UHGV virus genome: UHGV-1374671
Direction: 5' to 3' (one strand)
Source of the DNA: a virus
DNA: 64,000 nt
A program made the position numbers and the translations under genes. The notes under the pieces were generated by a model, which worked only from the letters and a program-made list of their open reading frames with translations, was not told the origin of the DNA and ran no database searches. Numbering within the stretch: position 1 is the first letter of the stretch; every line of letters begins with the position of its first letter. Of this stretch, positions 12,476 to 62,328 are shown piece after piece.

Positions 12476-13405
12476 ATGGCAAATCCGTTTACATCATTGG
12501 AGTGCGCGATCCGGTATGACAATGCCAGGGTGCTGACCTGGGAAATGCTGCCGGGCGCCAACTATCCTCCTGATTTTATACTTCAAGTAGAAAATTCCAG
12601 GGCCGGCGGCCCATGGGAAGTACTGGCCACCGGATTGCGGGATGTATGCGCATTTGTGGATACGAGGCGCAGAAACTACAACAAGCAGATGAACGAGTAT
12701 TACCGGGTGCGTTTACTGTCCAAATGTACCGGTGACAACTGGGTGTCTGAAGTTGTGGAGTCCGGTAATTCCAAAGTGTACCCTTTCAGCACCGAAGCTC
12801 AGAATGTACTGAAACAGGTAGAGAAGGCTATCGAGTTGTCAGGATGCACCGGGGTCCTTCTGAAAAAGAAGACCTGGGGCTGCCGTTGCCCTATGTGCAC
12901 GGACTTTGACAATCAGTCCACTGTGAATGAGCACTGCCCGAACTGTTTCGGAACCGGCATCGACGGCGGTTTCTACAATGGAATAACCATGAACGTCATA
13001 AAGGATTCCATTAACTCCAGTGACGGGCCTACCGCGCATGGATACGGACAGTCCGAGATTGTTAAGGCCAGGTGCATTGCGTATCCCTGGATTCACTTTG
13101 GGGACATCTGGTGCGAGGACATCACCAACAACCGGTTCTACATCCTGGATGCCACGCCGACGTCGTCCTACAAACACATTCCGCTGATCTACTCGATCAC
13201 GATGTCCAGACTGGAGATGACGGATGCGCTCTACACTCCTCCGGCGGATGACAAGGTTCTTTTGAAGGATGTGTGGGAATCCTCGCAGGTGGAGTACACA
13301 CCGGAAACTTTGAAGAAGGAAGAAACACAGTCTGCGATCATGGCCGGCAATCCGGTGCCTCCGCCTCCGAGCGACTGGGATAAAGGACTGGGTGAATGTC
13401 TATAG
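12476..13405 (+). CDS. structural protein with C4 zinc-ribbon (CRCPMC...CPNC)
   Basis: ORF; four Cys in two CxxC pairs. Confidence 0.5.
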   Translation: MANPFTSLECAIRYDNARVLTWEMLPGANYPPDFILQVENSRAGGPWEVLATGLRDVCAFVDTRRRNYNKQMNEYYRVRLLSKCTGDNWVSEVVESGNSKVYPFSTEAQNVLKQVEKAIELSGCTGVLLKKKTWGCRCPMCTDFDNQSTVNEHCPNCFGTGIDGGFYNGITMNVIKDSINSSDGPTAHGYGQSEIVKARCIAYPWIHFGDIWCEDITNNRFYILDATPTSSYKHIPLIYSITMSRLEMTDALYTPPADDKVLLKDVWESSQVEYTPETLKKEETQSAIMAGNPVPPPPSDWDKGLGECL

Positions 13406-29012: not shown

Positions 29013-30331
29013 ATTGGATCGCCAAAACAAAGTACATACTGGGCAAGTTCTGGGTCACGTTATTTGGTGACTCTGATTTTATACTTGGAGTAGAAAAGCT
29101 CCATGCACTGTTCGGGCGGCTGAAGGAGAACTCGCTGTTTAACTTCAAAGAAGGCAAAATCTCTCGCAGCAAAGCGTTTAAGCAGGATATAGCCCCGGTT
29201 GTCATCTACATAGACTCCCTTCAAGTCAGGGCTCCTTATTCCTCCGTGGATTCCATCTTGAACGGGGGTACGATTGGGGGGTCACAGCAGAACGCCGGCT
29301 GGGTGGCCGAGTGTACTGCGGATATTGCGTACCCTGACTACCTTACCGATCACGCGGTGGACTTCACCAAAACACTGTTTGCCGGTATTGACTACGAAGT
29401 GAAGGGACGACAGTTCCTGTTCTATGTTGATCCGTCCACAATCGGGTTCCCAACTGTCAAGAGATCTGATCCAGACGGGACGCTGCATGTCTACTATGTC
29501 GTTTTCGGATGGCGTCGCCGCACGTATGCACAGAAGGACGCCGTTGCCGGTTTCCTGGACCCTGCGCTGTCTCCTTACGCGGACAAGGCCTGGGACGTGT
29601 ATATGAACGGCGCGACCTATTACAACACGAAGATGCTGCTCGGCGCCATCACCGGCGCCGTGATCTGCGAGAATGACGGTGTTGTAGATCATCTGTGGCA
29701 GGAACAGGATTACTGGTGCATGCTGGTGGGAGACAAGGTGTACAGCGCCAAGAACGGTATTCAGATCAACTTCGATCACGGCGACGACGTGAAACAAGGG
29801 GACATCCTGTTTGGAAGCATGCGTTTCTACAGCGGACGAGATCTTCCTCCCTATTCCGAGGTTCCTGGAATCCGTGTTCGTACTGATGTAGGCGGGATGA
29901 TCGCACCCAACAACGACACGGCAGCGTACCAGGTGGAAGGAGAGAACATTCTTCCGCTTACCGAGAGCGCTTCCAGGGTTCAGCTGTACAAGGACAGGGC
30001 ATATGAACTGTCCCAGGATCAGAAATGCCCGTATACGTCGATTCCAGCCACTGTGAACCCCTTCAAATTCATCATGCAGGATATGAGACGGGGTCGTGGT
30101 TGTTTTGCAATGCTGACCACCGACAGGCTTCAGAGCATTAATCCTGCCTTGCAGGTGATCCGGGAAGGGATCTGCGCGTCCGGCATCCTCAATGTATTTG
30201 TAAAGGCTGAAGGAGACACCGTAGGGGTCACTGTATCCGACTTCACAGCTGAAACTGGGAATGCGGCGGTGTCTGTGGATGCCACAATTACAATTCAGGA
30301 AGCCTCGGTTGAGGCAAGGGTGTTCATATGA
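29009..30331 (+). CDS. baseplate/tail protein
   Basis: ATGA overlap start at 29009. Confidence 0.4.
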   Translation: MNWIAKTKYILGKFWVTLFGDSDFILGVEKLHALFGRLKENSLFNFKEGKISRSKAFKQDIAPVVIYIDSLQVRAPYSSVDSILNGGTIGGSQQNAGWVAECTADIAYPDYLTDHAVDFTKTLFAGIDYEVKGRQFLFYVDPSTIGFPTVKRSDPDGTLHVYYVVFGWRRRTYAQKDAVAGFLDPALSPYADKAWDVYMNGATYYNTKMLLGAITGAVICENDGVVDHLWQEQDYWCMLVGDKVYSAKNGIQINFDHGDDVKQGDILFGSMRFYSGRDLPPYSEVPGIRVRTDVGGMIAPNNDTAAYQVEGENILPLTESASRVQLYKDRAYELSQDQKCPYTSIPATVNPFKFIMQDMRRGRGCFAMLTTDRLQSINPALQVIREGICASGILNVFVKAEGDTVGVTVSDFTAETGNAAVSVDATITIQEASVEARVFI

Positions 30332-45250: not shown

Positions 45251-47086
45251 TTATATGAACTGGTTGTCAGGTGTTATTACGGATGCTCTCAAATCCACGG
45301 CTTCCTTGAAGCGCTCGAAATCCCCTCTGGGACCAAACACTTCGTCGTCCATGATCTTGTTGTGGTTCTCGTCGAAGTCCAGTACGGACGCGTCGTATCT
45401 GGAGCCGATTTTGGGATATGCTCCGAAGTGGTCCCATATCTGGGAGCATCCGAAGTTGACGGCATGCGCGAAGTCGTCAGGCGCTCCCGGCTTCTTGATG
45501 ATCAGCACGACGGTTTCGTTCCCCATGGACTTTCTGGGATCCTCCCGAAGGGCCAGCAAATCGCGCTGGAAGGCCTTCTCATCGGTTTCGGCGAATCCGG
45601 GCAGTCTGACCCGGGTTGCCTTGATCGACATCACTGTGATCGCCAGAGAGCGGCTTTTATCAAGGGTGTAGTAGTACAGGTCCGACTCACGCATCCCGGT
45701 ATGGGGAACCATCACATCCCCGGCACGGGGCCTGACGTAGTTGATGGGAATGACGATCAGCCCGGGAATGTCCCGCAGCCCCTGGTGGTTCATGATCTCC
45801 AGCCGGGCGAACCCGGCCCCGCCGTTGTCGTAAGTGAAGGCGTCGGCACCGGTTCCCCGTATCCAGTCCATGATCTCGTTCGCTTCATCGGTAGGAGTGA
45901 CGCCGTGCTTGATGCGCTTCCCGTACAGCACGTCGATCACGTCCGAATCCCGCCGCAGCCCCAGCACGGCATACGCGGTGTACGAATCGCTGACCATGGA
46001 ACCGCCTGACCAGTCCACCGCAACCGTGATGTACGAGTACAGATGCTTCAGCCCACGTACATCGGCAGGACGCTGCACGGAGATGTCATGCGTGGCCTTC
46101 TGCAGGTCGGACATGGTCAATGGGCTGGTGGCCGCATCGTAGGGCCACCCGAACACTTCGTTGTACAGCGCCAGCGGCGCATAGTTCTCGATCTTGTCCA
46201 GCAGCTTGTTCCACTTGTCCTGCGACAGGATGTGAAGCGGGTGCACTGTCTGCGAGATGTGATATCCGGGAAACGACAACTGGCGTTCCGGTCTGGCGTG
46301 CACGTATCCGCCGTTCTTGGGAAACACCGGCTTTCCGCAGTGGGCGCATACCGGGCCGTGCTTGCCGATCATCTTCAGCAGGTGCTGTTCCGGGTTCGGG
46401 ATGTTGAACTTGTTGCAGTGCTCGCAGCGGATCACCCACTCGGCCTGGCTGGAGCGGTTCCACAGCAGCGCCAGTGTGGTATCGGTGGTTTTGGGTGTTC
46501 CGGTGTACCGGGCGAAGCCCCAGAAAATCGAGGCCGACATCATCTCGTTACCGATGTCAATGAACTCGTACTCAATGTCTTGCACTTCATCCCACGTGGT
46601 GCTGGCCACGTTCGAGATACCGCGAGCCCGATCCGGTGACTCGAACATATGTTCTGCATAACACATGGATCCATTTTTAAATTCGCGTAAAGCCATTTTC
46701 TGCAATTCCGTGCTCTGAATGAACTGGGTTCGGATAGGGCAGGAGGAAAGGAGGGGTCTGTAAACAGTATTCACTAAACGCTGCACCTGGTCCGCTCTGG
46801 GCTGGATCAGCACTGTGTGGTAGTAGGGAATCAGCATGTTCCTGAGTCCGATATCGGCGGATATGCTGTACGACTTACCAAGCTGGCGGCCGCACATGTA
46901 AACAGAATGGGGAGACTGGACTGTGCTGAACATCGGTGCGAACTGATAGTGCAGATGCAGCGTCATGGGCTTTCCATTCAGCCGGAACAAGCATAGGAAA
47001 GGGATCAACGTCTTCAGTGATCCCTTCCTGATCTTATCGTAGGCATCCGCAAAGATGCTGTTCAGTTTTGTCGTTGAATTCGTCAT
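45251..47086 (-). CDS. terL: terminase large subunit
   Basis: Walker A CGRQLGKSY, Walker B-like DEVQDIE, C-terminal RNaseH-like nuclease (VAVDWSGG...DNGGAG); 611 aa. Confidence 0.7.
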   Translation of the reverse strand: MTNSTTKLNSIFADAYDKIRKGSLKTLIPFLCLFRLNGKPMTLHLHYQFAPMFSTVQSPHSVYMCGRQLGKSYSISADIGLRNMLIPYYHTVLIQPRADQVQRLVNTVYRPLLSSCPIRTQFIQSTELQKMALREFKNGSMCYAEHMFESPDRARGISNVASTTWDEVQDIEYEFIDIGNEMMSASIFWGFARYTGTPKTTDTTLALLWNRSSQAEWVIRCEHCNKFNIPNPEQHLLKMIGKHGPVCAHCGKPVFPKNGGYVHARPERQLSFPGYHISQTVHPLHILSQDKWNKLLDKIENYAPLALYNEVFGWPYDAATSPLTMSDLQKATHDISVQRPADVRGLKHLYSYITVAVDWSGGSMVSDSYTAYAVLGLRRDSDVIDVLYGKRIKHGVTPTDEANEIMDWIRGTGADAFTYDNGGAGFARLEIMNHQGLRDIPGLIVIPINYVRPRAGDVMVPHTGMRESDLYYYTLDKSRSLAITVMSIKATRVRLPGFAETDEKAFQRDLLALREDPRKSMGNETVVLIIKKPGAPDDFAHAVNFGCSQIWDHFGAYPKIGSRYDASVLDFDENHNKIMDDEVFGPRGDFERFKEAVDLRASVITPDNQFI

Positions 47087-47316
47087 AATTGCCTGCCTGG
47101 TATGTGTTCACGCTCTGCTTACAGTAGACTTGAACACAAACCCAGGAGCACTAAGATGCTGGTACAGGCACAGAAGTATATGAGATCCAAACATGTGATC
47201 CCGGCAGACAGATACCTGAAGAAAGACTCTTTGGGAACGGACCGAACGCAGGAGACAAGGAGGCCTGACAGAACGGACGTCGTGTCTGTGCAGAAACCGA
47301 ACAAACAAAGATCACA

Positions 47317-47703
47317 TTGAGCAGAACACTCAACAACAAAGTATGGGCACTGATCGGTCTGCTGATCGCAGTGCCCGTTTTCATTTCACCGGTAACGGTT
47401 GTCCTGACCGTCGGAATCATGCTGTACTGCCGCGCCAACATGGCGCGCGCACTGAACCCGTGGATCAAATCCGGGCTCATGTTCGTACTGGCTGTTCTGA
47501 TGCTCAGCGTACTCAGCGCTTACGACCCGACGTGGAAGATCTGGTTCTGGACCGTGAACACGGCACTCATGCTGACCGTCTGCATGCACTTCATCGGGGG
47601 CATACTGGATGAAGCCAGGAACAGAAGGGAAACCAGAAGACTCGACTCGGAGGTCGTGGATCCTGAGTGGTACAATCCGAAGACCGGTAAGTGGGAACGA
47701 TAA
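47317..47703 (+). CDS. small multi-pass membrane protein (holin-like?)
   Basis: 3-4 predicted TM helices; 128 aa. Confidence 0.45.
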   Translation: MSRTLNNKVWALIGLLIAVPVFISPVTVVLTVGIMLYCRANMARALNPWIKSGLMFVLAVLMLSVLSAYDPTWKIWFWTVNTALMLTVCMHFIGGILDEARNRRETRRLDSEVVDPEWYNPKTGKWER

Positions 47704-47934
47704 CCTGATTCAAATGCAGGGCTCTGGAGGCCGGGATAGGTCTTACCCATACAATGAGAGGGGTAACGACCTAAGTCGCGCCACAGGGCCCTTTCCGTTG
47801 AATTCTGGGCATTTTGGACGACTACTGACGAAATTCATTGCAACGACAGTATCCGATCATGTCATTTTCAACATGCCTGGCAACAGGCGGAGAACAACAA
47901 GAGAAAACCATGAAGAAATTCACTTAGTAACGCC

Positions 47935-47962
47935 TAAATTAGACGCGTCTAAAAAATTTTTA
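47935..47962. terminator. palindrome TAGACGCGTCTA followed by AAAAAATTTTT (bidirectional terminator-like)
   Basis: seen directly. Confidence 0.4.
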
Positions 47963-48128
47963 CAAGAAAGAAGTGATCAAGAAAGAACTGGGTGCGAGAA
48001 TCCCCGCACTGTCCACGGCAAATCATCTGAGGATCCTTGCGAGCACTGCTTGGTTCACGGGGCTTGAGGGCAGTTCCGGCATAGCCCGACAAGACCCCCA
48101 CAAGTACGGTATACCCGGCACGCCTAGT

Positions 48129-48150
48129 GTACTTAAATAAATTTAAGTAC
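48129..48150. promoter_or_regulatory. AT-rich perfect palindrome GTACTTAAAT-AA-ATTTAAGTAC (operator-like)
   Basis: 10-bp arms. Confidence 0.4.
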
Positions 48151-48184
48151 CTTAGTCGCGCCCGTGCATACGTACACGTGAGAG

Positions 48185-48660
48185 CCAGTCCAGCCATGGC
48201 GGAGCTCTCCCCTCCCCCATGACCAATCAGCGCCGCAGGCTCTCGAGACGATTTCCGCCGGGACGGCGGAAATTCTCGCCGCGTAGCGCGCGCTAGCGCG
48301 CTGAATGCGCACGCGCAGGCGCGATAGAAGATCGCGCGATCTTCTACGCGCGCCTCCCCGGCGCATACCTGCGGATCTGCGCACGCATTATGCGTGCGCT
48401 ACCCGCATCGCAGGACTTGCGCGTGCGCATTATGCCTGCCGCCCGAAATACCGCACGCCTTGTAACACGCGAAACTGGTGATGCGCTTGCGCATACCGCG
48501 CAGCGCGCGAGGATGAAGCCCGGTCCAGCGCCTGACGAAGCCTCCAACCTGCGGTATACCCACCCTTGCCCCTTCGGGCACAACCGCTAGCGCGGTTGCC
48601 AAGGCATTGGGGATAACGCAGGTTTCGGCTTCTAACCCAGCCATGCCTGCTGACGCAGGA
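48185..48660. repeat. GC-rich non-coding island containing at least five distinct perfect palindromes, flanked by 9-bp direct repeat CCAGCCATG (48190 and 48637)
   Basis: palindromes TTTCCGCCG-GGA-CGGCGGAAA, GCGCGCTAGCGCGC, AGAAGATCGCGCGATCTTCT, GCGCACGCAT-T-ATGCGTGCGC, AACCGCTAGCGCGGTT; only Arg-rich spurious ORFs. Confidence 0.55.
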
Positions 48661-48711
48661 TAGCTGGGAGCCAGAGGGTGGTTGGAAGAGAAAACTGACG
48701 GTCACATCAGG

Positions 48712-48830
48712 TGAAACGCAAATAGAGCGATTTTGAGGCCCACATAGCTGTCACCCCATGTCGTTGCCCGGTTTTGAGACCGATCGCCATCAGAAGGGCC
48801 TCAGAATTGATTTATCTGGTATTCGCACCG
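48712..48830. repeat. direct repeat copy A (~110 bp, starts CAAATAGAGCGATTTTGAGGCCCACATAG)
   Basis: 29-nt identical head then ~75% similar body vs copy B. Confidence 0.6.
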
Positions 48831-48885
48831 GATACCTGACCCGGCTTTCGCACCACCATCAGCTGATCCAGGTCTAAGCGCCGGT

Positions 48886-48960
48886 GAAAACACCGGATTC
48901 AGACGCCGGAAAACGACCGATTCAGCGCCAGGAGAACCACCGGATTCAGCGACCCTGTTC
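48886..48960. repeat. three spaced CCGGATTCAG/CCGATTCAG iteron-like repeats
   Basis: seen directly. Confidence 0.45.
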
Positions 48961-49007
48961 ACGACTGTTAATCCCTGCGCCAGGTTTTCATGCCAGGTTT
49001 ATCGGGA

Positions 49008-49125
49008 TTCAAATAGAGCGATTTTGAGGCCCACATAGATCGACCCCTAGTGAGAGCCCGTTTTCGACCACGTCGTCGATCAGAGACAGTCAGGAATCGA
49101 TTTATCGGGCATTTCCATCAAGTTG
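49008..49125. repeat. direct repeat copy B
   Basis: see copy A. Confidence 0.6.
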
Positions 49126-49286
49126 TTGATCCGGCAACTGTCCATCAGACCCGTACCAGGATGAAACCGGGTCGCCGACATGCGCTTCTCAACCGGGTTC
49201 AGGTTGTAGTGTATGTGCACGTCCGACGACCAGGTTCACGAGCCTGGTTATTTAGTCATAAAAAGTTTAACATAAGGAGGTTATAC

Positions 49287-50420
49287 ATGTTCGAGAAGAT
49301 ACTGTTCATGGCTGACTGTCACATCAGGTCACGCACATGGACGAACTTCATGCAGCTCCAGGGAGACGCCTACTGCGCGCTGCAGAAAGTGTCCGATCAG
49401 CTGGCCGCCATGAAGAGCCCGCCGAAGGTGCTCGTAGTCGGAGGAGACTGGTTCGACGGAAACCGACCCAGTTCGTGGGACGTCAGGGAGACGTTCCGGT
49501 TTCTGAGTCAGTTCGAGCTGGTGTTGTTCGTGAACGGGAATCATGACAAGGTCGAGCCTTCGTTTCTGGAGATTCTCCAGGGACTGGGCTGTACGAACGT
49601 CAGGGTCGAGAATCTGCAGAACCAGCCCGGTCGCGTACTCCAGTTCGATAACCAGTTTTTCATAGCTGGACTGAATTGGGTGGAGAACGCTGATCAGCTG
49701 AAAGCGGCGATAAGGGAGATCGCCGTGGAGTACAAATCGCTCGGTACAGACCAGCCGCTGTACCTGGTTCTGCACACCAGCTTTCAGCATCTGCTCGGTT
49801 ACGAGGGCTCGTACAAGCTCACGATTCAGGACGTCGAGGAGATCTTCGGAGACAGCCAGGTTCGTGTGCTTGTGGGAGACATTCATACCCGTGACCTGAC
49901 TCACATCAGCAACATGAACGGAAGCTACGTTCACAGTCCAGGATCGCTGTATCCCAGGAGCTTCGACAAGGTGAACGAGGAGTACGCCGTGTCGTTGATC
50001 GACACGGGCACGGGAGAGATCAGGGACCTCGACTGTCGTGTCAGGCTCTACTACCGATACGATTACAAGAGCCGTGACGAGCTCGATCAGCTGGTCGAGA
50101 TCGCGAAGCAGGAAAGCAAGGACCTTCCACTGCCGCCGTTTATCAGGGTCGTCGTTCCGAAGGATTCTGAAGTCAAGATTCTTCAGACGGACTACGAGGA
50201 CGTCGTCATCCAGGTCGTAACCGAGGATGTTGAGGACCAGGAGGAAGTCACCGCCAGACAGCTCCAGGAACAGTACACGCTTGCCCAGGCCGTTGCCGAG
50301 GAGGCGAACGAGGACGACGACATCAGGGATCTCGCCGTGGCGCTGATTTCAGCAGACGACCCGCTGGCCGAGATCGAGGGCTGGTTGAAGTTCTGGAATG
50401 TCGTCAGATCAACGATATGA
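49287..50420 (+). CDS. sbcD: SbcD/Mre11-family nuclease (calcineurin-like phosphoesterase)
   Basis: RBS AAGGAGG; motifs DCH, GDWFD, GNHD. Confidence 0.65.
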   Translation: MFEKILFMADCHIRSRTWTNFMQLQGDAYCALQKVSDQLAAMKSPPKVLVVGGDWFDGNRPSSWDVRETFRFLSQFELVLFVNGNHDKVEPSFLEILQGLGCTNVRVENLQNQPGRVLQFDNQFFIAGLNWVENADQLKAAIREIAVEYKSLGTDQPLYLVLHTSFQHLLGYEGSYKLTIQDVEEIFGDSQVRVLVGDIHTRDLTHISNMNGSYVHSPGSLYPRSFDKVNEEYAVSLIDTGTGEIRDLDCRVRLYYRYDYKSRDELDQLVEIAKQESKDLPLPPFIRVVVPKDSEVKILQTDYEDVVIQVVTEDVEDQEEVTARQLQEQYTLAQAVAEEANEDDDIRDLAVALISADDPLAEIEGWLKFWNVVRSTI

Positions 50421-50429
50421 GGTCATAGC

Positions 50430-52439
50430 ATGTTCAAGTTATCGAGAGTGCGTTTGCACAACATCTGCCAGTACGACGATGCGGACATTCCGATAGAGGG
50501 CGGACTGACTGCTGTGTGCGGCAAAAACGGGGCTGGCAAGAGCAACTGCATCAGGGCCATCGCCTACGGGCTCACCGGATTGGTGGACGGTTCCTGGGGC
50601 AATCAGCAGAAGCTCCAGAAGGACGGCACCGCCGATCCTGGCTGGGTTGAGGTGTACCTGACAGGAACCGAGGATCTGGTCGTCAGGAGATTTTCTACTT
50701 CGAGTACAAAATTTCCGGATCGGATTCTGAAGACGGTCAACGGAGTGGTAACCGAGGTCGCTGTCCGCCGCAAGGAGGTGGACAAGTACATGACGGGCGT
50801 GTTCGGCATTCCAGTGCCGCTCATGTTCCAGATCATGTGGGGAAGACAGGGCAGGCTGGACGATCTGCTTACGTCTCCTCCGGCGCTGGTGAACACGTTC
50901 CTGGCTGCGGTGTTCGACACCAAGAAGCTGGACAAGCTCAGAGAGAAGCTCAAGATCCAGATCGACACGATAGCTAACATCCCGGCCGACAGCGTGACCC
51001 TGCTTGAGCGATACAAGGCCGAGCGGGAAGCGCTGCCGTCAGTGGAGAGCCTGGCGGCGTCACTGGAGTCCAGCAAGGCAGCTCTGCATGATGCGGAGGC
51101 CAGACTGGAGGAGCTGAACGACACGATGAAAGCCGGCATCACGAAAGCGTCCCTGGATGGGTGCATCGCGATGTACACAGAAGAGCTTCAGACGTCCGAG
51201 AACTGGCTTTCCAGCAATCCTGAGACGCCTGAACCGTCTGTGCCGTCCATAGACGCGGCAACCGTTGATGTCAGCCTTGCAGGCGCTTCCAACGAGCTTT
51301 CCCAGCTGCAGAACCGGCGTAACCACACTGAGCTCACGCTGCGCAACCTGGAGGCAGGTCTTCCGGTCAAGAAGACCAATCTGCAGGATCTTCGTGACAG
51401 CCATCAGTCTATTCTGGACAAGATGTCGGTGCACGACTCCGAGTGCCGGCTGTGCAAGGGCCATATCGTGGACCACGTCAGTTACGACGCAGCGCGCTGG
51501 AAGATGCTGACCGGGTACACTACCCAGGAACAGTACGAGAAGGCCTTCACGGGCAAGGAAAGCACCCTTCTGGCCGTTATAAGCGCGGACGAGGATGCCA
51601 TCCGGACAGCCAGCCAGATGATCGATGCCATGGATGTGGAGATCTCGAAGCAGCAGGAGCTGCTTCAGAACCTGTCGGAATTGAAGGCGGCACATGAGGC
51701 GCATGCAAGATGGTCTGCGACCAACGAGCTGCGAATCATGCACACCGAGAAATCTAAAGGTCTTAATGAAGCACTTGACAAGTACAGGTCGATGACTCCG
51801 ATAGACGACTCGATTCCTCAGGACATCGCCGAGCTTTCCAGCAGAGTCGACCAGCTCAGAACCGAGGTGGAGACCAGGCAGAAAGCACTGTTCAAAACAG
51901 AGGCGGATTTGAAGTATTACGACAGGTCCATCCAGGACTACGAGAAAGCGGCTCAGAGCTACCAGATCAACTCAGAGGCCCGCAGAGTGCTCACTACGAT
52001 CCGTGACATATACTCTCAGGGACGGGCCCAGGCCAGGTACCTGCGTTCCAAGATCCAGCAGCTGAACAGGCGGATCGGTTCCTACATGGAACAGACCGGC
52101 ATGCCTTTCAGCCTGTATTTGAACGAGGACACCCACGTGTTCGAGTATGTGACTGACAGCGGATTCACGCACCCGGCAGCCCACCTGTCCGGAGCTCAGA
52201 AAAGCATCTCGTCTGTCGTTCTTCAGATGGCTATGCTGTCTGTAATCGGGCCCCAGATGAACCTGTTTCTCGTTGATGAGCCATCCGAGGCTCTTGATGA
52301 TGAAAACAAGATTGTCATGAGTTCGTTGTTCCAGAGGCTCAACAACTTACTACCGTCCATGGACGGAGTGATGCTGATTGTGACCCGAGATTCGCTCATT
52401 ATTGAGAGTTGTGAAAATGTCATAAATGTAGGAGATTGA
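50430..52439 (+). CDS. sbcC: SbcC/Rad50-family ATPase
   Basis: Walker A GKNGAGKS, central coiled coil with CxxC zinc hook, C-terminal LFLVDEPSEALD. Confidence 0.65.
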   Translation: MFKLSRVRLHNICQYDDADIPIEGGLTAVCGKNGAGKSNCIRAIAYGLTGLVDGSWGNQQKLQKDGTADPGWVEVYLTGTEDLVVRRFSTSSTKFPDRILKTVNGVVTEVAVRRKEVDKYMTGVFGIPVPLMFQIMWGRQGRLDDLLTSPPALVNTFLAAVFDTKKLDKLREKLKIQIDTIANIPADSVTLLERYKAEREALPSVESLAASLESSKAALHDAEARLEELNDTMKAGITKASLDGCIAMYTEELQTSENWLSSNPETPEPSVPSIDAATVDVSLAGASNELSQLQNRRNHTELTLRNLEAGLPVKKTNLQDLRDSHQSILDKMSVHDSECRLCKGHIVDHVSYDAARWKMLTGYTTQEQYEKAFTGKESTLLAVISADEDAIRTASQMIDAMDVEISKQQELLQNLSELKAAHEAHARWSATNELRIMHTEKSKGLNEALDKYRSMTPIDDSIPQDIAELSSRVDQLRTEVETRQKALFKTEADLKYYDRSIQDYEKAAQSYQINSEARRVLTTIRDIYSQGRAQARYLRSKIQQLNRRIGSYMEQTGMPFSLYLNEDTHVFEYVTDSGFTHPAAHLSGAQKSISSVVLQMAMLSVIGPQMNLFLVDEPSEALDDENKIVMSSLFQRLNNLLPSMDGVMLIVTRDSLIIESCENVINVGD

Positions 52440-52458: not shown

Positions 52459-53736
52459 ATGAAAATTGTACTGGCCGATACAGTGATCACTGTGTTCGGG
52501 TGGCTCAATGTGATGGATCAGATCGGAAAGTACAAGCTGAAGATCCGCAAGACTCCTCAGGAGATCCGTGAGGAGAAGGAGATCAGACGACAGCGGTACG
52601 GAAGCGACGCCCATAAGGTGAATCCTATGCGGTACGAAGATCGCACCGTGATCGCCAAGAATCCGTCTGATCCTACCATCGCATACTTTCTCCCAGGGCT
52701 GTGGCCACGGGTGAAAGGCTATCTGGATACGCAGAAGATTACATACGAAATCGAGGACAAAAGGGATCCTTCCATCAGGCCTGACCCGGACTATTCAAAA
52801 CTGGCCGGAGCGACATTGAGACCAGGACAGGATACCGCCTTGGCCCTGATTACGTCGTTGGATTGTGGGCTAATAAATACCAGCACGGCATGGGGAAAAA
52901 GCCATCTAATATCTTTTATATGCAAGGTTTATCCCACGCTTAACATTGTCGTCACCACTGGATCCACCACGGTGGTCTCAACTCTGTACGAATATCTGTG
53001 CAAGCAGCTGCCCGGCCAGGTCGGTTACCTGTACGCCAGGGGCAACACCACGCATGGAAAACGGGTGATTGTGACCACGCTGAAGTCGTTGCCGAACATC
53101 TCTCCTGAGCGCGTCCAGTTGCTGTTGTGCGACGAGTGTCATGCCTGCGGAGACAACGAGGCCGGCAGGGCAGTGTCCAAGTTTGTGTTCAGCCGCAGAT
53201 TTGGATTCTCCGCCAGTCCGATCCGCAATGACGGCTCCAGAATCGTTATGGAGTCCATCTTCGGACCTGAGATCATGAAGATGACCTACCAGGAGTCTGT
53301 TGACGTTGGAAACATCGTTCCCATGAAGTACCTGATGCTGCCTTGTCACAAAGGGCCAACCAGCTTGTGCGACAAGCCGGGCATGGACGATGTATTCAAG
53401 AAGCGCTTCGGGTACTGGTGCAACTACAACAGGAACAGGGCTATTGTGGAACTGGTCTACGACATCAAGCAGGTGTATGAGGGCCAGATTTTGATAATGG
53501 TCGGTTCACTGGAACACGCAATTCAGTTGCACATTATGCTGCCCTGGTTCAAGGTCGCTCATTATGGCGCAACTGACTTGGACGAACTCAAGAAAAAGAA
53601 GTTCTCCAAAGACAAATACTCCGACATTGACTTTTCTCAGTACAAGATGAGCCAGAAGCAGCTGGACATTATGCGGGCCGCCTTTGCAAAAGGTACGCTC
53701 AGGTACGTGATCTGCACCAAAGTGTTTAAACAAGGT
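52459..53736 (+). CDS. SF2 DECH-box DNA helicase, exon 1
   Basis: motif I TAWGKSHL, motif II DECH; ORF runs into intron and hits stop 24 nt inside it. Confidence 0.6.
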
Positions 53737-54002
53737 AAACATCAATGCCTCGCAGCATAGGAATGTGCTGTCGTGAGCCGCTTAATTGCTGGGAACTCCG
53801 ACCGGGTAATGCCGAGGACAATCAGCAGCGAAGTCCTGAAAAGTAGGAAACGTTCAACGACTATCCCTGCGGGGAGTACACGCAAGTGCGTGGAAACAGC
53901 GGCCACCCAGAACGGGTGAAGATATAGTCTGACCTTGCATGGTAACATGCAGCTGGATTAACAATCCGGGCTGAGCGTAACGAACTCAGTTGAACACAAA
54001 AG
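53737..54002 (+). ncRNA. group I self-splicing intron (266 nt, no ORF) in helicase gene
   Basis: AATTGCTGGGAA P3/P4-like element, UAGUC P7-like element, P1 pairing exon CAAGGU with intron GCCUCG giving G.U at 5' splice site, intron ends in G; exon junction restores helicase motifs V-VI in frame. Confidence 0.6.
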
Positions 54003-56747: not shown

Positions 56748-57878
56748 GTGTTGAACAAACCACTCTATGACACGCTTGTGCGCATGTTCAAGCGTGTCGA
56801 AATCGCCAACGAAGGGCAGCATGCACGGGTCAGCAGGAAAGCGGGTACCGTGTCGGCGTGGTGTATTGAAAGGAACAACGAACACGGTGAGCAGTACCGT
56901 GTGAATTGTCCTTTCTGCGACGACCGGAACAAGCACCTCTACATTTCGTATCTGTCCTACATTCGTCCAGTCGTGAACGGTCAGGTGCTTCAGGTAGGCA
57001 AATTGAGAGCCCAGTGCTTTCGCAGAGGCTGTCTGAAGAAGATTGAGAACAGAGAATGGCTCGAAGGGCAGATCGCTATGTACAGGTTAGCTCTTGGAGC
57101 AGGTGCGGAAATTCCAAACATTGAAATCTCGGAAACAGACTCGGAAACCCTTCCCAGATACGAGGTGTCGGACGACATTTCCGTGGATGGGTTCAAGACA
57201 TGGGTACCTGATTATGAGCCGATCACAGCGCAGTCCAGGAGTGACATTCTGGAGTACCTGGCGGCTCGTCGTGTGTCCATGGATGACGTGGAATGGATGA
57301 GACTCGGCTGGGGGCCTGTCAAGTCCCCGCGTTCAGGCAACTACCTGAACAACGGCAGTCCGTTCATTCTGATTCCGATGATACAGAACAACCAAGTGAA
57401 GGGCATCCAGGGCAGGTGCCTTCCCCAGTACCTGAAGGAGGACGGCATCAAATACTGGATTCACCCTGCCTGCAGAAAACGTACTGTTGTGCTGAACATC
57501 GACATTGCCAGACAGCTCGGCCTTGGTGTCGTCTGTGAAGGCGCTTTCGATGTGCTCAGCATTGGTAAACCGGGCGTATGCACCTTTGGACATACACCAT
57601 CAGAAACGCAAAGGCGGTTGCTTACCACGTTCTCACAGGGCATCATATGGTGTCCTGACACGGACGTGACGCCGAGGCTGAATCCTATTCAGATCGCCAG
57701 GGAGCATGTTGCTGTCTGGAACGCGTCCAATGCGTTTCCGAAAGGTGCGCACGTCGTAGAACTGTCCCAGAAAGATGCCGGCAGTATGTCCCGGCAGCAA
57801 GTATGGGAGGAGATCGTTTCCCAGGTTCCTGCTCATATGCAGGACTTCCTGCTGGAGAGGATCATCCCAAACCTATAG
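56748..57878 (+). CDS. DnaG-type DNA primase (CHC2 zinc finger + TOPRIM)
   Basis: CPFCDD...H...C zinc motif; TOPRIM EGAFDVLS...DTD; GTG start with GGAGG upstream. Confidence 0.6.
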   Translation: MLNKPLYDTLVRMFKRVEIANEGQHARVSRKAGTVSAWCIERNNEHGEQYRVNCPFCDDRNKHLYISYLSYIRPVVNGQVLQVGKLRAQCFRRGCLKKIENREWLEGQIAMYRLALGAGAEIPNIEISETDSETLPRYEVSDDISVDGFKTWVPDYEPITAQSRSDILEYLAARRVSMDDVEWMRLGWGPVKSPRSGNYLNNGSPFILIPMIQNNQVKGIQGRCLPQYLKEDGIKYWIHPACRKRTVVLNIDIARQLGLGVVCEGAFDVLSIGKPGVCTFGHTPSETQRRLLTTFSQGIIWCPDTDVTPRLNPIQIAREHVAVWNASNAFPKGAHVVELSQKDAGSMSRQQVWEEIVSQVPAHMQDFLLERIIPNL

Positions 57879-57895
57879 GAACAGAGGAGATCGAG

Positions 57896-58924
57896 ATGCA
57901 AGACTTAGGCGTCGTCGACGTCAGCATGCGGCACTTTGTCGGGCCGGTTCACATCCGGGTATGGGAGCCCGGAGATCCGTTCCCGACACTGGGGCCTTCC
58001 GTTGGCGTTGACACAGAAACCGAGCTGATCACGGACACGGTGAAGGACCCGCCGGTAGTTGTTACCGGCGTGTTCGACCCTGCGAACTCGAATTGCTGGA
58101 TCGTTTACTGGCAGCATACCGCAGCGTTCATGCGGGAGCTGAACAAGCGCGACATCCAGCAGAGGTACTTCAACGTCGGGTTCGACGAACAGGTGCTCGA
58201 CAACGAGGACGAGGAGAAGAGCCTTCTGACGGCTGTCGACGCAAGGCGGGTGCGTGATATGCAGATCCGCATTCACCTGCACGAGATCGCCACGCTGGGT
58301 TGGATCCGAGGCAATCTGTACAACCTGGCGGACTGTGCTCTGCACTTCCTGAATGTGACGCTGGACAAGGGTGATCCGGACGACTACGAGAACTCTGCAC
58401 GAATGACGTTTCGGCGGCATAATAAAGATGGGAGCGTTTATCGCATAACGGATGAACAGGCCAAATACCTGTGTTATGACTGCGCTTCCACCTGGGGTCT
58501 CGGAGAATCGGTACCGGAACAGCCAACCGAGGTGGAACATACCAAGGGCATGATCGTCCTGGCACACATCAGCACCAACGGCATTCAGGTCGACCCTGTA
58601 GTGTTCGACGCCATGGAGGAGAAGCTGTTCAAAGCCAGGGACGAGGCCAGGCTTCGTCTGCTGGCGTTTGGATTCCCAGATCCGTACAAGGACGTCAAGA
58701 AGGAGGCCGCAGCCGAGCGTCAGCTTTTCTACTCGGAATACAAAAAGCTGTGTGAATCGGCAGGACTGGAGTGCCATCTCGGCATGGAGGAACAGACACT
58801 CGATGACGAAGACGAAACCGTCATTCAGGTTCCTAAAATACCAAAGAAGGACTCTCTCAGGCTGATGGTCTGCTACCTGTATCGATGCTTCACGTTCGTA
58901 CACAATACCAAGAACGCGGCGTAG
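57896..58924 (+). CDS. family-A DNA polymerase N-terminal 3'-5' exonuclease domain (exon 1 or separate exo gene)
   Basis: Exo I VGVDTETELI, Exo III YLCYD; stop codon TAG coincides with first bases of intron-like sequence. Confidence 0.55.
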   Translation: MQDLGVVDVSMRHFVGPVHIRVWEPGDPFPTLGPSVGVDTETELITDTVKDPPVVVTGVFDPANSNCWIVYWQHTAAFMRELNKRDIQQRYFNVGFDEQVLDNEDEEKSLLTAVDARRVRDMQIRIHLHEIATLGWIRGNLYNLADCALHFLNVTLDKGDPDDYENSARMTFRRHNKDGSVYRITDEQAKYLCYDCASTWGLGESVPEQPTEVEHTKGMIVLAHISTNGIQVDPVVFDAMEEKLFKARDEARLRLLAFGFPDPYKDVKKEAAAERQLFYSEYKKLCESAGLECHLGMEEQTLDDEDETVIQVPKIPKKDSLRLMVCYLYRCFTFVHNTKNAA

Positions 58925-59355: not shown

Positions 59356-60462
59356 GTGATAAGCAGAGCTCATACAATCAAGCTGAAACCCAATAAAGCA
59401 CAGGCGATCATGCTGGCCAAGACGGCCGGTACTGCCAGGTATGCCTACAACTGGGGATTGGCCAAGTGGAATGAGCTGTACGAAGCCGGTGAGAAGTGCA
59501 GTGCTTACAGCCTGATGAAACTTTGGCAAGAAGGCAGACCTGACTGGGCATTGGAAGTGGGCGCTGCGTGTTTGCAGCGCCCGTTCATGCACCTGGAAGG
59601 CGCCTTCAAAGCGTTCTTCAGAGGACAGCGTAAGCACCCAACCTTTCACAAGAAGGGTTTGCGGGACGGGTTCTACGTCCCGAATACTCATTTCAAACTC
59701 CGTGGTAACAAGGTTCAGCTACCCAAGTGCGGACTTGTCAGAATGACCGAGCGTATTCGTTACGCGGATGTGAAGGTTGTTTCTTCGGCAGTCAAGCACC
59801 AGGCAGACGGCTGGTATGTCGTAATCCAGGTCGAGCTTGAAGAGGAACACAGAACCGAATCCGACTCTTTTGTCGGAGTCGATGTCGGATGTACCCAGCT
59901 CGCAACAGCGAGCGACGGTACGACCTGCTGCTCACCGGCCAAGCTCAAAGACCTGGAACGTCAGCTGAAACGTAGACAGCGCTTGCTGGCACGCAAAGCC
60001 AAGGGCTCCAACAATCGAGCGAAAGCGAGATTGAAGGTAGCCCGTACCTGGCAACGAATCAACAATATCAAACAAGACACAGCTCACAAGTTCACTGCAC
60101 TCATTGCCAAGAACCACGGCACTGTTTGCATTGAAAAGCTGGATGTGAAGAGTATGCAATCAGGAGACAACGCCCTCGTAAGAAAGGGCGTGCATAACTC
60201 CTGCATGTCGGAAATCCTGAGACAACTCAAGTACAAGTGTAACAACTTTATTGAAGTTGACAAGTATTTCCCGTCCAGTAAGACTTGTTCGAACTGTGGG
60301 CACATAAACGCTGAACTGACCCTTGGGGATCGCACGTATAATTGTCCGGGCTGCGGACTGAAAATCGACAGGGATCTGAACGCAGCGTTGAACCTCCGTA
60401 AGGAGGGTCTGAGGATTTACACGGTGGGTCACACCGGCAGTGCCTGTGGAGTTGCCCGGTAA
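59356..60462 (+). CDS. tnpB: TnpB (IS605 OrfB family RNA-guided endonuclease)
   Basis: RuvC-I VGVDVG, RuvC-II E in CIEKLD, zinc finger CSNCGH...CPGCG, RuvC-III DRDLNAALNL; N-terminal OrfB helix-turn-helix region; GTG start after GGAAG. Confidence 0.75.
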   Translation: MISRAHTIKLKPNKAQAIMLAKTAGTARYAYNWGLAKWNELYEAGEKCSAYSLMKLWQEGRPDWALEVGAACLQRPFMHLEGAFKAFFRGQRKHPTFHKKGLRDGFYVPNTHFKLRGNKVQLPKCGLVRMTERIRYADVKVVSSAVKHQADGWYVVIQVELEEEHRTESDSFVGVDVGCTQLATASDGTTCCSPAKLKDLERQLKRRQRLLARKAKGSNNRAKARLKVARTWQRINNIKQDTAHKFTALIAKNHGTVCIEKLDVKSMQSGDNALVRKGVHNSCMSEILRQLKYKCNNFIEVDKYFPSSKTCSNCGHINAELTLGDRTYNCPGCGLKIDRDLNAALNLRKEGLRIYTVGHTGSACGVAR

Positions 60463-60559: not shown

Positions 60560-61453
60560 GTGTGCGAAATGGAGAAACCGTCACTGCGGAAAGACGCCAG
60601 GAACATGTACTCGAAGCTCCTGGAGGACTACGAGATCATGGCGTTCGACCAGGCCACCAAGGGAATCGTCATGCCGTCGTTTGTGGCGCATCTGATGGAG
60701 CACTACAACAAGCAGCGTGATTCCGGAGAGGTCGCAGCAAAGGGCTACGACTTCGGAGCCGCAGTCAAGTACGCCAGCGAGTACATCGACGATCATCCTG
60801 AATGGCTGTCGAAATCCGAGCAGATAGGTCCCAGCAAATTCTTCCAGAATCATGTGAAGGGCATCATGGAGGCCAATCCGAAGCTGGAGCTGGAGACCAC
60901 TCCCAAGAGTGGGGCAGTCAAGCTGACACTCAAGGACAAGTGGCGGTTGGAGGACAACGGCATCAAGGACAAGTTCTTGGATGCTTACATTGACTTCAAT
61001 CATTGCCAGAAATATTTAAGTACCTATATGAACCGTTTGTTCATCAAAGGGGATAATCGGATACATGCCAGGTTCACAAATATTTTGCGGACCGGACGTA
61101 CCAGCTGCACCGGACCTAACTTGCAGAATTATCCCAGCAGGGACAAGGTGTTTCCGTTGAAGAACATCTTCTGTCCTTACGATGGCATGCTGTTGTGTGC
61201 TACCGACTTCTCGTTTATTGAGTTGTGTGGCTTTGCCCAGTCCTGTTACAGCAGGTTTGGGTTCAGCGTTATGCGCGACGTCATCAACGCAGGTCTGGAT
61301 CCGCACCGCTGGTTCGCAGCGGTGATGGACAAGCTGATCAAGCCGGACCTGACGCACAAGGACGACCCGAAATGGGTCGCGGAACTGAAAGGATTTTTGA
61401 AAGCAAATGTAGACGATTCAAGACGACAAAAGGCCAAAATGGCCAATTTCGGT
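60560..61453 (+). CDS. family-A DNA polymerase palm/fingers segment (pre-motif A RIHARFTNILRTGRTSCTGPNLQNYP, motif A DFSFIELC, motif B RRQKAKMANFG)
   Basis: frame open from 60476 immediately after tnpB; ORF stops 6 codons after NFG inside motif B. Confidence 0.6.
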
Positions 61454-61672
61454 CGACCATCAAGGCCGAATTAAAACTGCGGAATTAAGCGGGGAACTCT
61501 CATTGAGACGATCCGAACCGAAGCCTGGAAGGGATTCCAGTCAGGGACAGAGCATACCGGCAGGGGAAGAACTCCCATCAGCCGACACGAGGCCGCAGCA
61601 ACTGGAGAAACAACTCTGGTTGAAAAGATATGCCGAGCTGTGTGGCGACATACAGAAGTGCTGGATAAAAAG
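61454..61672 (+). ncRNA. small group I-like intron (~215 nt) interrupting polymerase motif B
   Basis: interrupts conserved NFGxxYG motif with stops in all frames; shares GCGGGGAACTC and CGAAGCCTGGAAGGGATTCC blocks with the other two introns; boundaries approximate. Confidence 0.45.
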
Positions 61673-62328
61673 CCGGCACGATAACAAAACTGTTTCCAGG
61701 AGCACTGGGTGTCAAGACTTTCTACAGGAACTGCAGGGAGTCCGGCGTACACCTGACCATGGAAGAAGCTGAATTCATGCGGGATGCGTGGATCAGCACT
61801 TTCAAGGAAATGAAGTTCCACATGAAGCCAGAGAAGTTGCGTAACTCGACAGGGTTCGGCAACCAGTTCGGCTTCAGGGACGACGAAGAAGAGTACATCG
61901 ACCCGTCCGAGCAGGACAGGCAGTTGTACAGGGCAAAATTAATTAATGGAATGGTTAGAAACAGGTGCAGTTTCAATGCGGCCTGTAATATGCAATTCCA
62001 AGGGCTCGTGGCATTTGGCGCGAAGCTGGCAGGCTGGAATCTAGTAACTCACGGATACGAACATAGAGTAGTCAATTTCGTACACGACGAATTTCTGTAC
62101 TGCCTGTATCCGGAGGAGCTCAAGGTCCACATCCCTGTCATTGAGCGCCTGATGATCGACGGGATGAGAGTTGCCATCCCGGATGTTAAAGTAGGAGTGG
62201 AATCCAGCGTCATGCGTCATTGGGACAAGAAGGCGACGGAATTCCACGACGTGAAGTGGGACGAGCAGGGAAGACCGCTCATTGAAGAGCCGCTGTTCGT
62301 CCAGAGTGTTCTCAAAATGGCCCAGTAG
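61673..62328 (+). CDS. family-A DNA polymerase C-terminal segment (O-helix tail...motif C VHDE)
   Basis: KLFPGALGVKTF...EEAEFMRDAWISTF continues the post-motif-B region; HDEFLY = motif C. Confidence 0.55.

Follow-up and report, generated by a model that had tools for sequence, protein, structure and literature searches.

The 64,000-nucleotide (nt) stretch of the virus genome UHGV-1374671 analysed here, called the window throughout, contains at positions 48185-48660 an island of GC-rich palindromes, located upstream of a sbcD-like gene. The palindrome island is genuine and goes beyond what chance would produce. As judged from comparison with related sequences, it is the fast-evolving, GC-rich, hairpin-dense core of a conserved cis-acting module of about 0.55 kb (approximately 48117-48660), which, on the evidence of gene order, heads a sbcD-sbcC-helicase-DnaB-primase-polymerase block in a family of uncultured gut and rumen phages of about 165-190 kb. 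The data indicate that the module is non-coding, conserved in position and under purifying selection, and that both its dyad symmetry and its purine-pyrimidine alternation are selected. The module may act at the DNA level, as a replication origin and/or as a supercoil-sensitive regulatory region; an origin is compatible with the evidence, and this is our preferred reading, held with somewhat less than even confidence. The element itself, an expansion in this lineage of part of a conserved cis-acting module that lacks annotation, is not a new principle; it is well defined, belongs to a phage family of which little is known, and has a real chance of proving to be a large structured RNA of a new kind or an unusual origin based on non-B DNA.

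The island had been described, in an initial annotation of the window, as a region of raised GC containing five perfect palindromes. The compositional shift is clear, GC being 0.62-0.675 over 48200-48699 in 200-nt windows, against an average of 0.54 for the whole window. Four of the palindromes are indeed perfect, namely ATTTCCGCCG-GGA-CGGCGGAAAT (48251-48273), GCGCGCTAGCGCGC (48288-48301), TAGAAGATCGCGCGATCTTCTA (48325-48346) and GCGCACGCAT-T-ATGCGTGCGC (48379-48399), the first and the last in their arms; the half-repeat reported downstream of the last one corresponds to a degenerate second copy at 48418-48441. The fifth, AACCGCTAGCGCGGTT (48581-48598), is imperfect: in the stem-loop that it forms, CAACCGC-TAGC-GCGGTTG, arms of 7 bp enclose a loop of 4 nt. 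Within 48200-48620 there are six palindromes with distinct centres and arms of at least 7 bp, whereas 2000 dinucleotide-preserving shuffles gave 0.42 on average and never as many as six; for arms of at least 9 bp the count is three, against 0.04 in the shuffles. The 500-bp bin of the island collects 10 of the 34 palindrome records of the window. GCGC occurs 57 times per kb in the island and 4.3 times per kb elsewhere, a 13-fold difference, and GCTAGC is found in two copies in the island and nowhere else in the window. Enrichment of CTAG was also evaluated as a feature of the family, and dropped, as it is not general among relatives.

The island proper, a variable core of GC 0.656, spans 48240-48530 and includes palindromes at 48251-48273, 48285-48302, 48325-48346, 48379-48399 and 48481-48494, in addition to the half-copy at 48418-48441. 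The dyad CGCAT-T-ATGCG (48384-48394) is present once in the window, with a near-copy at 48426-48436. The density of purine-pyrimidine alternation also peaks inside the island, at 0.69, about 4.8 standard deviations above the window mean. All of this lies within a control region free of open reading frames (ORFs), which extends for 1583 nt from the stop codon of a membrane-protein gene to the start codon of sbcD (47704-49286), so that the island is flanked by two co-oriented genes. The absence of a credible ORF in the island, claimed initially, is borne out by codon usage: all six ORFs overlapping it score between -0.06 and -0.26, against +0.13 to +0.34 for real genes. Gene callers leave the control region empty in the identical contig L063 and in the relatives L064, L067 and L073.

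Relatives, recovered through the sbcD protein, fall in two groups. Clade 1 is composed of the window and of contigs L064, L077 and L079, with sbcD about 95% and the non-coding region about 93% identical; its sister, clade 2, is composed of L067 and L073-L075, in which sbcD is 74% and the non-coding region 63% identical to the window. The control region aligns end to end with the two clades. Between the window and clade 2, identity is 82-90% over 48080-48200, and equally over a conserved left block (48060-48236), compared with 63% for the region as a whole; it reaches 90-98% over 48538-48657, far above the flanking protein-coding DNA, and falls to 40-68% in the core (48240-48530). Another block, 47743-47822, is 82-85% identical across clades. 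The core of clade 2 is of similar length (331 vs 311 nt), has a GC of 0.62 against 0.52 for its locus, and carries GC palindromes of its own. Within clade 1, the island varies in about 4.7% of columns (about 3-5% in the core), against 10.8% for the whole region and 30-40% at 48800-49000.

The left block contains an AT-rich dyad, the second copy of a 13-nt motif, an alternating run and a GAGAGC...GCTCTC hairpin. The AT-rich, operator-like palindrome GTACTTAAATAAATTTAAGTAC, previously noticed at 48129-48150, is there and is perfect, GTACTTAAAT-AA-ATTTAAGTAC, with an imperfect extension to 48117-48162; in L064, L077 and L079 one base is lost from each arm (GTACTTAAT-AA-ATTAAGTAC) and a perfect dyad is kept. 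The 13-nt repeat CCTAAGTCGCGCC outside the island is also real, at coordinates 47770-47782 and 48150-48162, two and one positions away from those originally given; its first copy, on the + strand, lies inside block 47743-47822 and is identical in clade 2. The alternating purine-pyrimidine run CGTGCATACGTACACGTG (48163-48180), 18 nt long, is the longest in the window and sits between the AT dyad and the island. In clade 2 its AC is replaced by GT, two transitions which leave the alternation unbroken. Similarly, the hairpin at 48251-48273 is kept in clade 2 through a change of TT/AA to CC/GG, and the polymorphisms of palindromes 48325-48346 and 48379-48399 are located at their centres; clade 2 also has two copies of GCGCAT-A-ATGC, about 40 nt apart. 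As read from these alignments, dyad symmetry is maintained by compensatory substitutions and by a symmetric indel.

The island had also been interpreted as a possible inserted element, because of a 9-bp direct repeat on its two sides to which a chance probability of about 0.002 was attached. The repeat, CCAGCCATG, is present at 48190-48198 and 48637-48645 (+ strand), but is not improbable: 52% of the 480-bp windows of the genome hold an exact 9-mer direct repeat, which puts the original figure off by more than two orders of magnitude, and the one of the island holds seven such pairs. The flanking repeat is a chance match. Its first copy lies inside the conserved GAGAGC...GCTCTC hairpin and the second in the stem of a hairpin at 48632-48672, both within blocks which are 82-98% identical between clades whose sbcD proteins are only 74% identical, with no break in conservation at either place. 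Clade 2 reads CCAACCACG and CCAGACACC at the two sites, hence the direct repeat is not conserved, and no empty site is found in L064, L067, L073-75, L077, L079 or L068. A mobile or foreign insertion, related to miniature inverted-repeat transposable elements or derived from an insertion sequence, with a 9-bp target-site duplication, would fit the repeat and a composition unlike that of the genome (GC, GCGC, CTAG within GCTAGC), and mobile elements, a TnpB gene and a group I intron, do exist elsewhere in this genome. We nevertheless regard it as ruled out, with a probability close to negligible, because the repeat copies are embedded in conserved blocks, differ in clade 2 and have no empty counterpart. 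In addition, the edges of the variable core (48240 and 48530) are 50 and 107 nt away from the 9-bp copies, terminal inverted repeats are absent, no second copy is found in the 64 kb nor any match in phage, plasmid, IMG/VR and GTDB collections, and distant relatives carry, at the same place, a shorter homologous module whose core is also GC-enriched.

The module precedes sbcD-sbcC in every relative, and is kept next to sbcD in more than 12 lineages, in which the large terminase subunit (TerL) is 46-69% identical to that of the window. Two genomes in which sbcD is 11.7 and 14.4 kb away from TerL retain the module at sbcD, which indicates that it belongs to the replication/recombination block and not to the packaging genes. 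In every lineage examined an ORF-free stretch before sbcD contains the same ingredients, despite differing sequences: an AT-rich dyad, a long alternating run, such as ATGCGCATACGTGCGTATACGCG or TATACACGTGTGTATACACGTGTGCGTG, and GC-rich dyads adjoining the run or close to it. Of 16 lineages, 12 have the longest alternating run in their locus, of 18-31 nt, upstream of sbcD; alternating runs of at least 12 nt occur at 2.37 per kb upstream of sbcD and at 0.26 per kb elsewhere, and palindromes with arms of at least 8 bp at 2.12 and 0.23 per kb, respectively, a 9-fold excess in both cases. An AT-dyad core, ATAC-N3-GTAT, is common to six lineages, while CGCAT-N-ATGCG has a single occurrence in each locus of the L006-type clade and in that of L029, at a distance of 206-433 nt upstream of sbcD in all cases. 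Island 9-mers occur 62 times in the regions upstream of sbcD of relatives, against 26 +/- 7.5 for shuffled islands, and are 3.4 times denser there than elsewhere. Megablast and blastn searches of the region against cultured phages and plasmids produced no match. IMG/VR was also scanned for exact copies of a palindrome, of the 29-nt repeat described below and of a 24-mer from the conserved block, and contained none. GTDB genomes contain no DNA match and no sbcD relative, and thus give no clue to a prophage or a host.

These features may be combined in a DNA-level model. A dimeric phage protein would bind the AT-rich dyad, where the half-sites of ATAC-N3-GTAT, being common to six lineages, point to sequence-specific recognition; under negative supercoiling, the alternating tract and the perfect GC palindromes could flip to non-B forms (Z-DNA, cruciforms); paired dyads such as CGCAT-W-ATGCG would offer further protein sites; together, the elements would mark the start of replication, or of early transcription of the replication module. 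Action on DNA is favoured because the conserved alternation is a property of duplex DNA, related to Z-DNA propensity and flexibility; to our knowledge, it has no structural meaning in RNA. About 80 pairs, taken from the local hairpins and from the junction block described below, are all of the Watson-Crick type, with no G-U or G-T, which is a better fit to DNA symmetry than to a typical RNA. Symmetry extends to the centres of two palindromes, which again counts for a DNA-level element, since a hairpin does not need it. In viral and plasmid origins such as oriS of herpes simplex virus (HSV) and the lambda ori, an AT-rich dyad is flanked by protein-binding dyads, and the module resembles them in being a single-copy non-coding unit by the replication genes, in which an AT palindrome adjoins GC dyads and repeated motifs. 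It differs from them in that no initiator is recognised, no iteron array is conserved and no skew switch is seen.

Several of these points weigh against an origin or duplex regulatory site. The GC-skew plot, proposed as a check in the initial annotation, shows no switch: cumulative skew rises, with a small local dip at 48.5 kb, over the 64 kb of a genome of about 175 kb. DnaA boxes are absent from 47704-49286, with one in the whole window, and none of the neighbouring genes is recognised as an initiator. The sole iteron-like repeats (48877-48949) show the lowest conservation of all parts and do not occur in clade 2; the 29-nt repeat is conserved, yet has two full copies only, one of which is dispensable in L074. 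The first hairpin changes its sequence and keeps its structure, behaviour that suits a folded strand better than a duplex site recognised by its sequence. A 102-nt block to the right of the core, in which a predicted three-way junction is conserved and both members of 14 pairs have changed, resembles a folded RNA or single strand more closely than a protein site on duplex DNA. Kayvirus phages, moreover, transcribe ORF-free regions of about 0.5 kb at a very high level (PMC11598898, PMC9241854). A variant in which the phage SbcCD would cut the palindromes, to start recombination-dependent replication, was set aside, since palindromes of 14-22 bp are judged too short for known SbcCD substrates.

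The 102-nt block (48534-48635, + strand) has a predicted fold of 35 Watson-Crick pairs, in which a rod leads to a three-way junction, and includes the stem-loop at 48581-48598. It is 98% identical between clades 1 and 2. A covariance model of the block detects one further lineage, L055 and L068, with E values from 3e-7 to 8e-7; its copy occupies the same position before sbcD, which is 49% identical to that of the window. In this alignment 14 of the 35 pairs are changed on both sides and 96% of the cells are paired, against 1-4 pairs and 28-47% of the cells in a control in which partners were slid by 1-3 columns. Since the alignment is fitted to the model and two lineages only are involved, the covariation is supportive but not conclusive; besides, the compensatory signal of the block and of hairpin 48251-48273 is equally expected of a DNA hairpin or dyad. 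A second model of the block gave no significant match in L056, L069-72, L054, L015, L042, L029 or L060.

Structure prediction, also suggested at the outset, places the fold energy of the island far below that of shuffled sequences on both strands (z = -8.4 and -7.6), the minus strand folding more stably. Strand tests based on wobble pairs, loop sequences and fold energy do not single out one strand, wobble-compatible changes being equal on each. A UUCG tetraloop, considered during strand assignment, proved wrong, as the loop is CUUC or UUUC. Rfam searches at permissive thresholds, on the window and seven relatives, returned chance-level matches only (19-24 bits, against thresholds of 48-62); the sole true match in the window is a group I intron, at 53727-53952. 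In a scan of the region for promoters and terminators the counts were at chance level, and none that is convincing lies on either side of the module.

On these data a structured RNA is the main rival of the DNA-level interpretation. The module would be transcribed, probably on the + strand toward sbcD, into an RNA of about 0.5 kb, which is possible, if doubtful; the palindromes would then be RNA hairpins and the 102-nt block a core domain, a picture we entertain as tentative. As for its role, such a transcript might be the leader of the replication operon, involved in processing, antitermination or translational control, or an abundant stand-alone long non-coding RNA (lncRNA) comparable to those of Kayvirus; the two options taken together are somewhat less likely than action at the DNA level. 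The fold energies on both strands fit this scheme, as do the two near-invariant blocks surrounding a hairpin domain variable in length and sequence, a pattern typical of large RNAs, and the rod and junction with paired changes in L055 and L068. Loops vary while stems are kept (48588-48591), the first hairpin survives its TT/AA to CC/GG change, and in helix 48304-17/48418-31 three of four substitutions yield G-U on the + strand. There is a precedent in lnc002/lncRNA2 of phage K, whose fold z-score is -3.6. RNA is disfavoured by the lack of any Rfam match in the window or relatives, by zero G-U among the well-supported pairs, by strand tests that do not choose a strand and a minus strand that folds more stably, by symmetry running through the centres of two palindromes, and by the conservation of alternation and AT half-sites, which are properties of DNA. 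The covariation comes from two lineages in a model-fitted alignment, the block goes undetected in most relatives, and no convincing promoter or terminator is found on either side.

Phage K offers a close parallel. Its putative origin, situated 2.5 kb from the terminase in an intergenic region that is silent, consists of a pair of 28-bp direct repeats (PMC11598898). A 543-nt ORF-free lncRNA region lies about 600 nt from this origin, near the terminase, and its product, lnc002/lncRNA2, of 543-1154 nt and ORF-free, has its own early promoter and is the most abundant transcript (PMC11598898, PMC9241854). Like the phage of the window, K is a large myovirus, with a terminase from the nearest cultured group of this TerL; in both, a conserved ORF-free stretch, some 540 nt long, is located at a few kb from where the terminase starts, in divergent direction, and has nearby a pair of exact direct repeats of about 28-29 nt, 190-290 nt apart (291 nt in the window). 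Sequence similarity is absent, however (best blastn E = 0.39), and GC is 30% in K and 65% here; the RNA of K is next to genes for tRNA and lysis, and has the opposite placement relative to the repeats. The K region has been shown to be transcribed, and no palindrome or alternating-tract architecture has been reported for K. The Kayvirus authors likewise compared their RNAs with ROOL and GOLLD (PMC9241854). The module shares with these a size of several hundred nt, a highly structured nature and an occurrence in phages of gut and rumen Firmicutes, but it gives no covariance-model match even at E <= 1, is not beside tRNA genes and has no G-U pairs. On a reading to which we give a probability well below one half, the module would encode an undescribed family of ornate structured RNAs of about 0.3-0.55 kb, heading the replication/recombination operon of this widespread group of gut and rumen phages of about 175 kb. 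Such a family, with a near-invariant three-way-junction domain joined to a fast-evolving GC-rich hairpin domain, would be a high-GC counterpart of the unexplained, extremely abundant Kayvirus lncRNAs; such an RNA could possibly act as a replication primer or as a regulator at an adjacent origin.

The island was further proposed as a packaging (pac/cos) site, a suggestion weakened by the module following sbcD and not the terminase. In its broader form, the region would be a physical landmark of virion DNA: the boundary of a long terminal repeat, a terminase recognition or cutting site, or an injection-stop site as in T5. We consider this distinctly unlikely. The nearest cultured relatives of TerL, the Herelleviridae, do package genomes with long terminal repeats, and K-like phages bracket them with TAAGTACCTGGG / CCCAGGTACTTA (PMC6022877, PMC4111496). 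In the AT dyad, the right arm, TAAGTACCTTAG (48143-48154), shares 9 of 12 bases with these (TAAGTACCT), in a related terminase lineage. Yet the match was picked with the sequence already in view, and about 0.5 occurrences of a 9-mer are expected in 64 kb, which leaves it within chance for a search of this size; we keep it as a lead only. The motif belongs to a local 22-bp palindrome, of which it forms an arm, instead of being matched by a second copy kilobases away. It has no inverted partner in the window, where TAAGTACC recurs at 61017, within the polymerase gene, in direct orientation. The 12-nt direct repeat ATTTAAGTACCT (48141 and 61014) was discarded as a chance pair, about 120 such pairs being expected in 64 kb. 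Six independent assemblies stop inside the non-coding region, 76-1037 nt upstream of sbcD (L061 at -76, L066 at -91, L065 at -144, L076 at -344, L070, a 186.7-kb contig, at -358, and L075 at -1037). These ends would suit a terminus, but their positions differ, and they could equally reflect repeats, hairpins or low coverage.

In T5, the injection-stop region, or Repeat Region 3, is a conserved untranslated region of repeats and palindromes at the terminal-repeat boundary (bioRxiv 10.1101/866236). The likeness, established by motif inspection, consists in a region more conserved among relatives than the neighbouring ORFs, in phages encoding SbcCD homologues; but the T5 region straddles the left terminal repeat and holds 8 DnaA boxes, whereas that of the window lies upstream of sbcDC and has no box of this kind. 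Replication genes follow directly downstream, unlike the content of the terminal repeats of K, SPO1 or T5. Between them, the DNA-level, RNA and terminus interpretations and that of an insertion do not exhaust the possibilities: the remaining probability is assigned to combined functions, such as an origin accompanied by a primer or regulatory transcript, or to something not considered.

Other repeats are found in the control region. Two tandem units, A and B, of about 291 nt each, occupy 48700-49286 (+ strand), unit B ending in the ribosome-binding site of sbcD; both open with the exact 29-nt repeat CAAATAGAGCGATTTTGAGGCCCACATAG (48719-48747 and 49010-49038, +). Alignment of the units revealed a degenerate third copy, 'unit C', of their 22-29-nt motif CAAATNNAGNGNTNTNGAGGCC at 47711-47739 (+). 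This motif has three matches in 64 kb (47711, 48719 and 49010), all in the control region, against 0.05 expected. Unit A (48706 to about 49000) is missing from L074, so that the tandem duplication before sbcD is polymorphic. Three tandem repeats of about 23 nt, ending in ACCGGATTCAG (48877-48949, +), coincide with the most variable stretch within clade 1, with 15-20 variable columns per 50. An RNA hairpin within the repeat units was rejected, its stem being lost in unit B. GC decreases to 0.40 at 47800-47999. Block 47743-47822 (within 47609-48067) matches what appears to be the C-terminal coding part of a longer homologue in L004, at -640 to -505 from sbcD, where the match reads CGCCACAGGGCC..., GND...ATGP, in a shifted frame. 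The membrane-protein gene of the window may have undergone a frameshift or a truncation; alternatively, CAGRGGCCNTTTCCGGCCAAATT may be a repeated element in its own right, of which L071 and L072 have several copies.

The window is part of a large uncultured tailed phage and covers 64 kb of the genome; metagenomic relatives are contigs of 165-192 kb from rumen and human-gut samples, and a 9.1-kb stretch is identical in a Logan contig of run ERR636350 (contig L063). TerL (45251-47086, - strand), identified by Pfam and PHROG matches (PHROG 675, E 1e-38), lies outside the module and provides context only; it is at most 26% identical to that of any cultured phage, with most matches in Herelleviridae, and is transcribed divergently from a point at about 47100. 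The distances from the island given in the initial annotation, 1.1 kb to TerL and 0.63 kb to sbcD, are both correct. On the + strand, directly 5' of the control region, a small conserved basic ORF (47156-47320) and then the 128-amino acid (aa) membrane-protein ORF (47317-47703, codon score +0.17, supported by gene calls) have homologues in L008 and L004. The sbcD-like (49287-50420, +) and sbcC-like (50430-52439, +) genes were assigned by Pfam, PHROG and synteny in relatives; genes for a helicase, a DnaB-like protein, a primase and a family A polymerase follow 3' of sbcC on the same strand.

Some observations concern other parts of the genome. The group I intron (53727-53952, +; Rfam RF00028, 88 bits, E 4e-21) is located at the end of a 433-aa helicase ORF (52459-53760); as the helicase is uninterrupted in L064 and L067 (518-519 aa), the gene of the window appears to be split by the intron. 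A TnpB-type transposase gene (59356-60462, +), with OrfB_IS605, Cas12f1-like TNB and HTH_OrfB_IS605 domains (PHROG 506, E 8e-103), sits amid fragments of the family A DNA polymerase (60560-61474 and 61759-62328, possibly also 57803-58924). The terminase is mosaic: L019, L020, L027 and L049, human-gut contigs unrelated to the window on both sides, are 94-99% identical to it only over TerL residues ~167-517 (window 45535-46590), and in L004/L005 (7598-10001) TerL is interrupted after residue 167 by about 1.9 kb, which suggests that an intron, an intein or a homing-endonuclease hotspot is present and that the middle exon is exchanged. Three copies of a 23-nt motif, GATTTTATACTTCAAGTAGAAAA, lie on the + strand (12572-12594, 29075-29097 and 50689-50711), with 0-3 mismatches and none expected by chance, all within different ORFs, sbcC included, where it reads in frame DF(I/L)L.V(E/Q)(N/K); a similar sequence is found 5' of an ATG in L009. 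Short perfect hairpins cluster densely downstream of the terminase operon in L006 (12350-13164) and L007 (12292-13532), many with G(T/C)AAC centres, such as TAACACGTAACGTGTTA and GAAGTCGCAACGACTTC. A weaker excess of palindromes is seen in the window at 43.5-45 kb.

Large virulent phages of gut and rumen are almost wholly uncultured, and their replication origins and regulatory RNAs are unknown. What is defined here is a family-wide, position-conserved, non-coding module, composed of an AT dyad, an alternating tract, compensated GC hairpins and a 98%-conserved 102-nt block. The presence of apparently selected, Z-DNA-prone alternation beside SbcCD genes is unusual, and relevant to the role of non-B DNA in replication and recombination. 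Should the module be a true origin, it would be of use in engineering replicons and in deducing the state of replication from metagenomic coverage; should it be a true RNA, it would represent a new class of large structured RNAs, linked to the unexplained abundant lncRNAs of therapeutic Staphylococcus phages.

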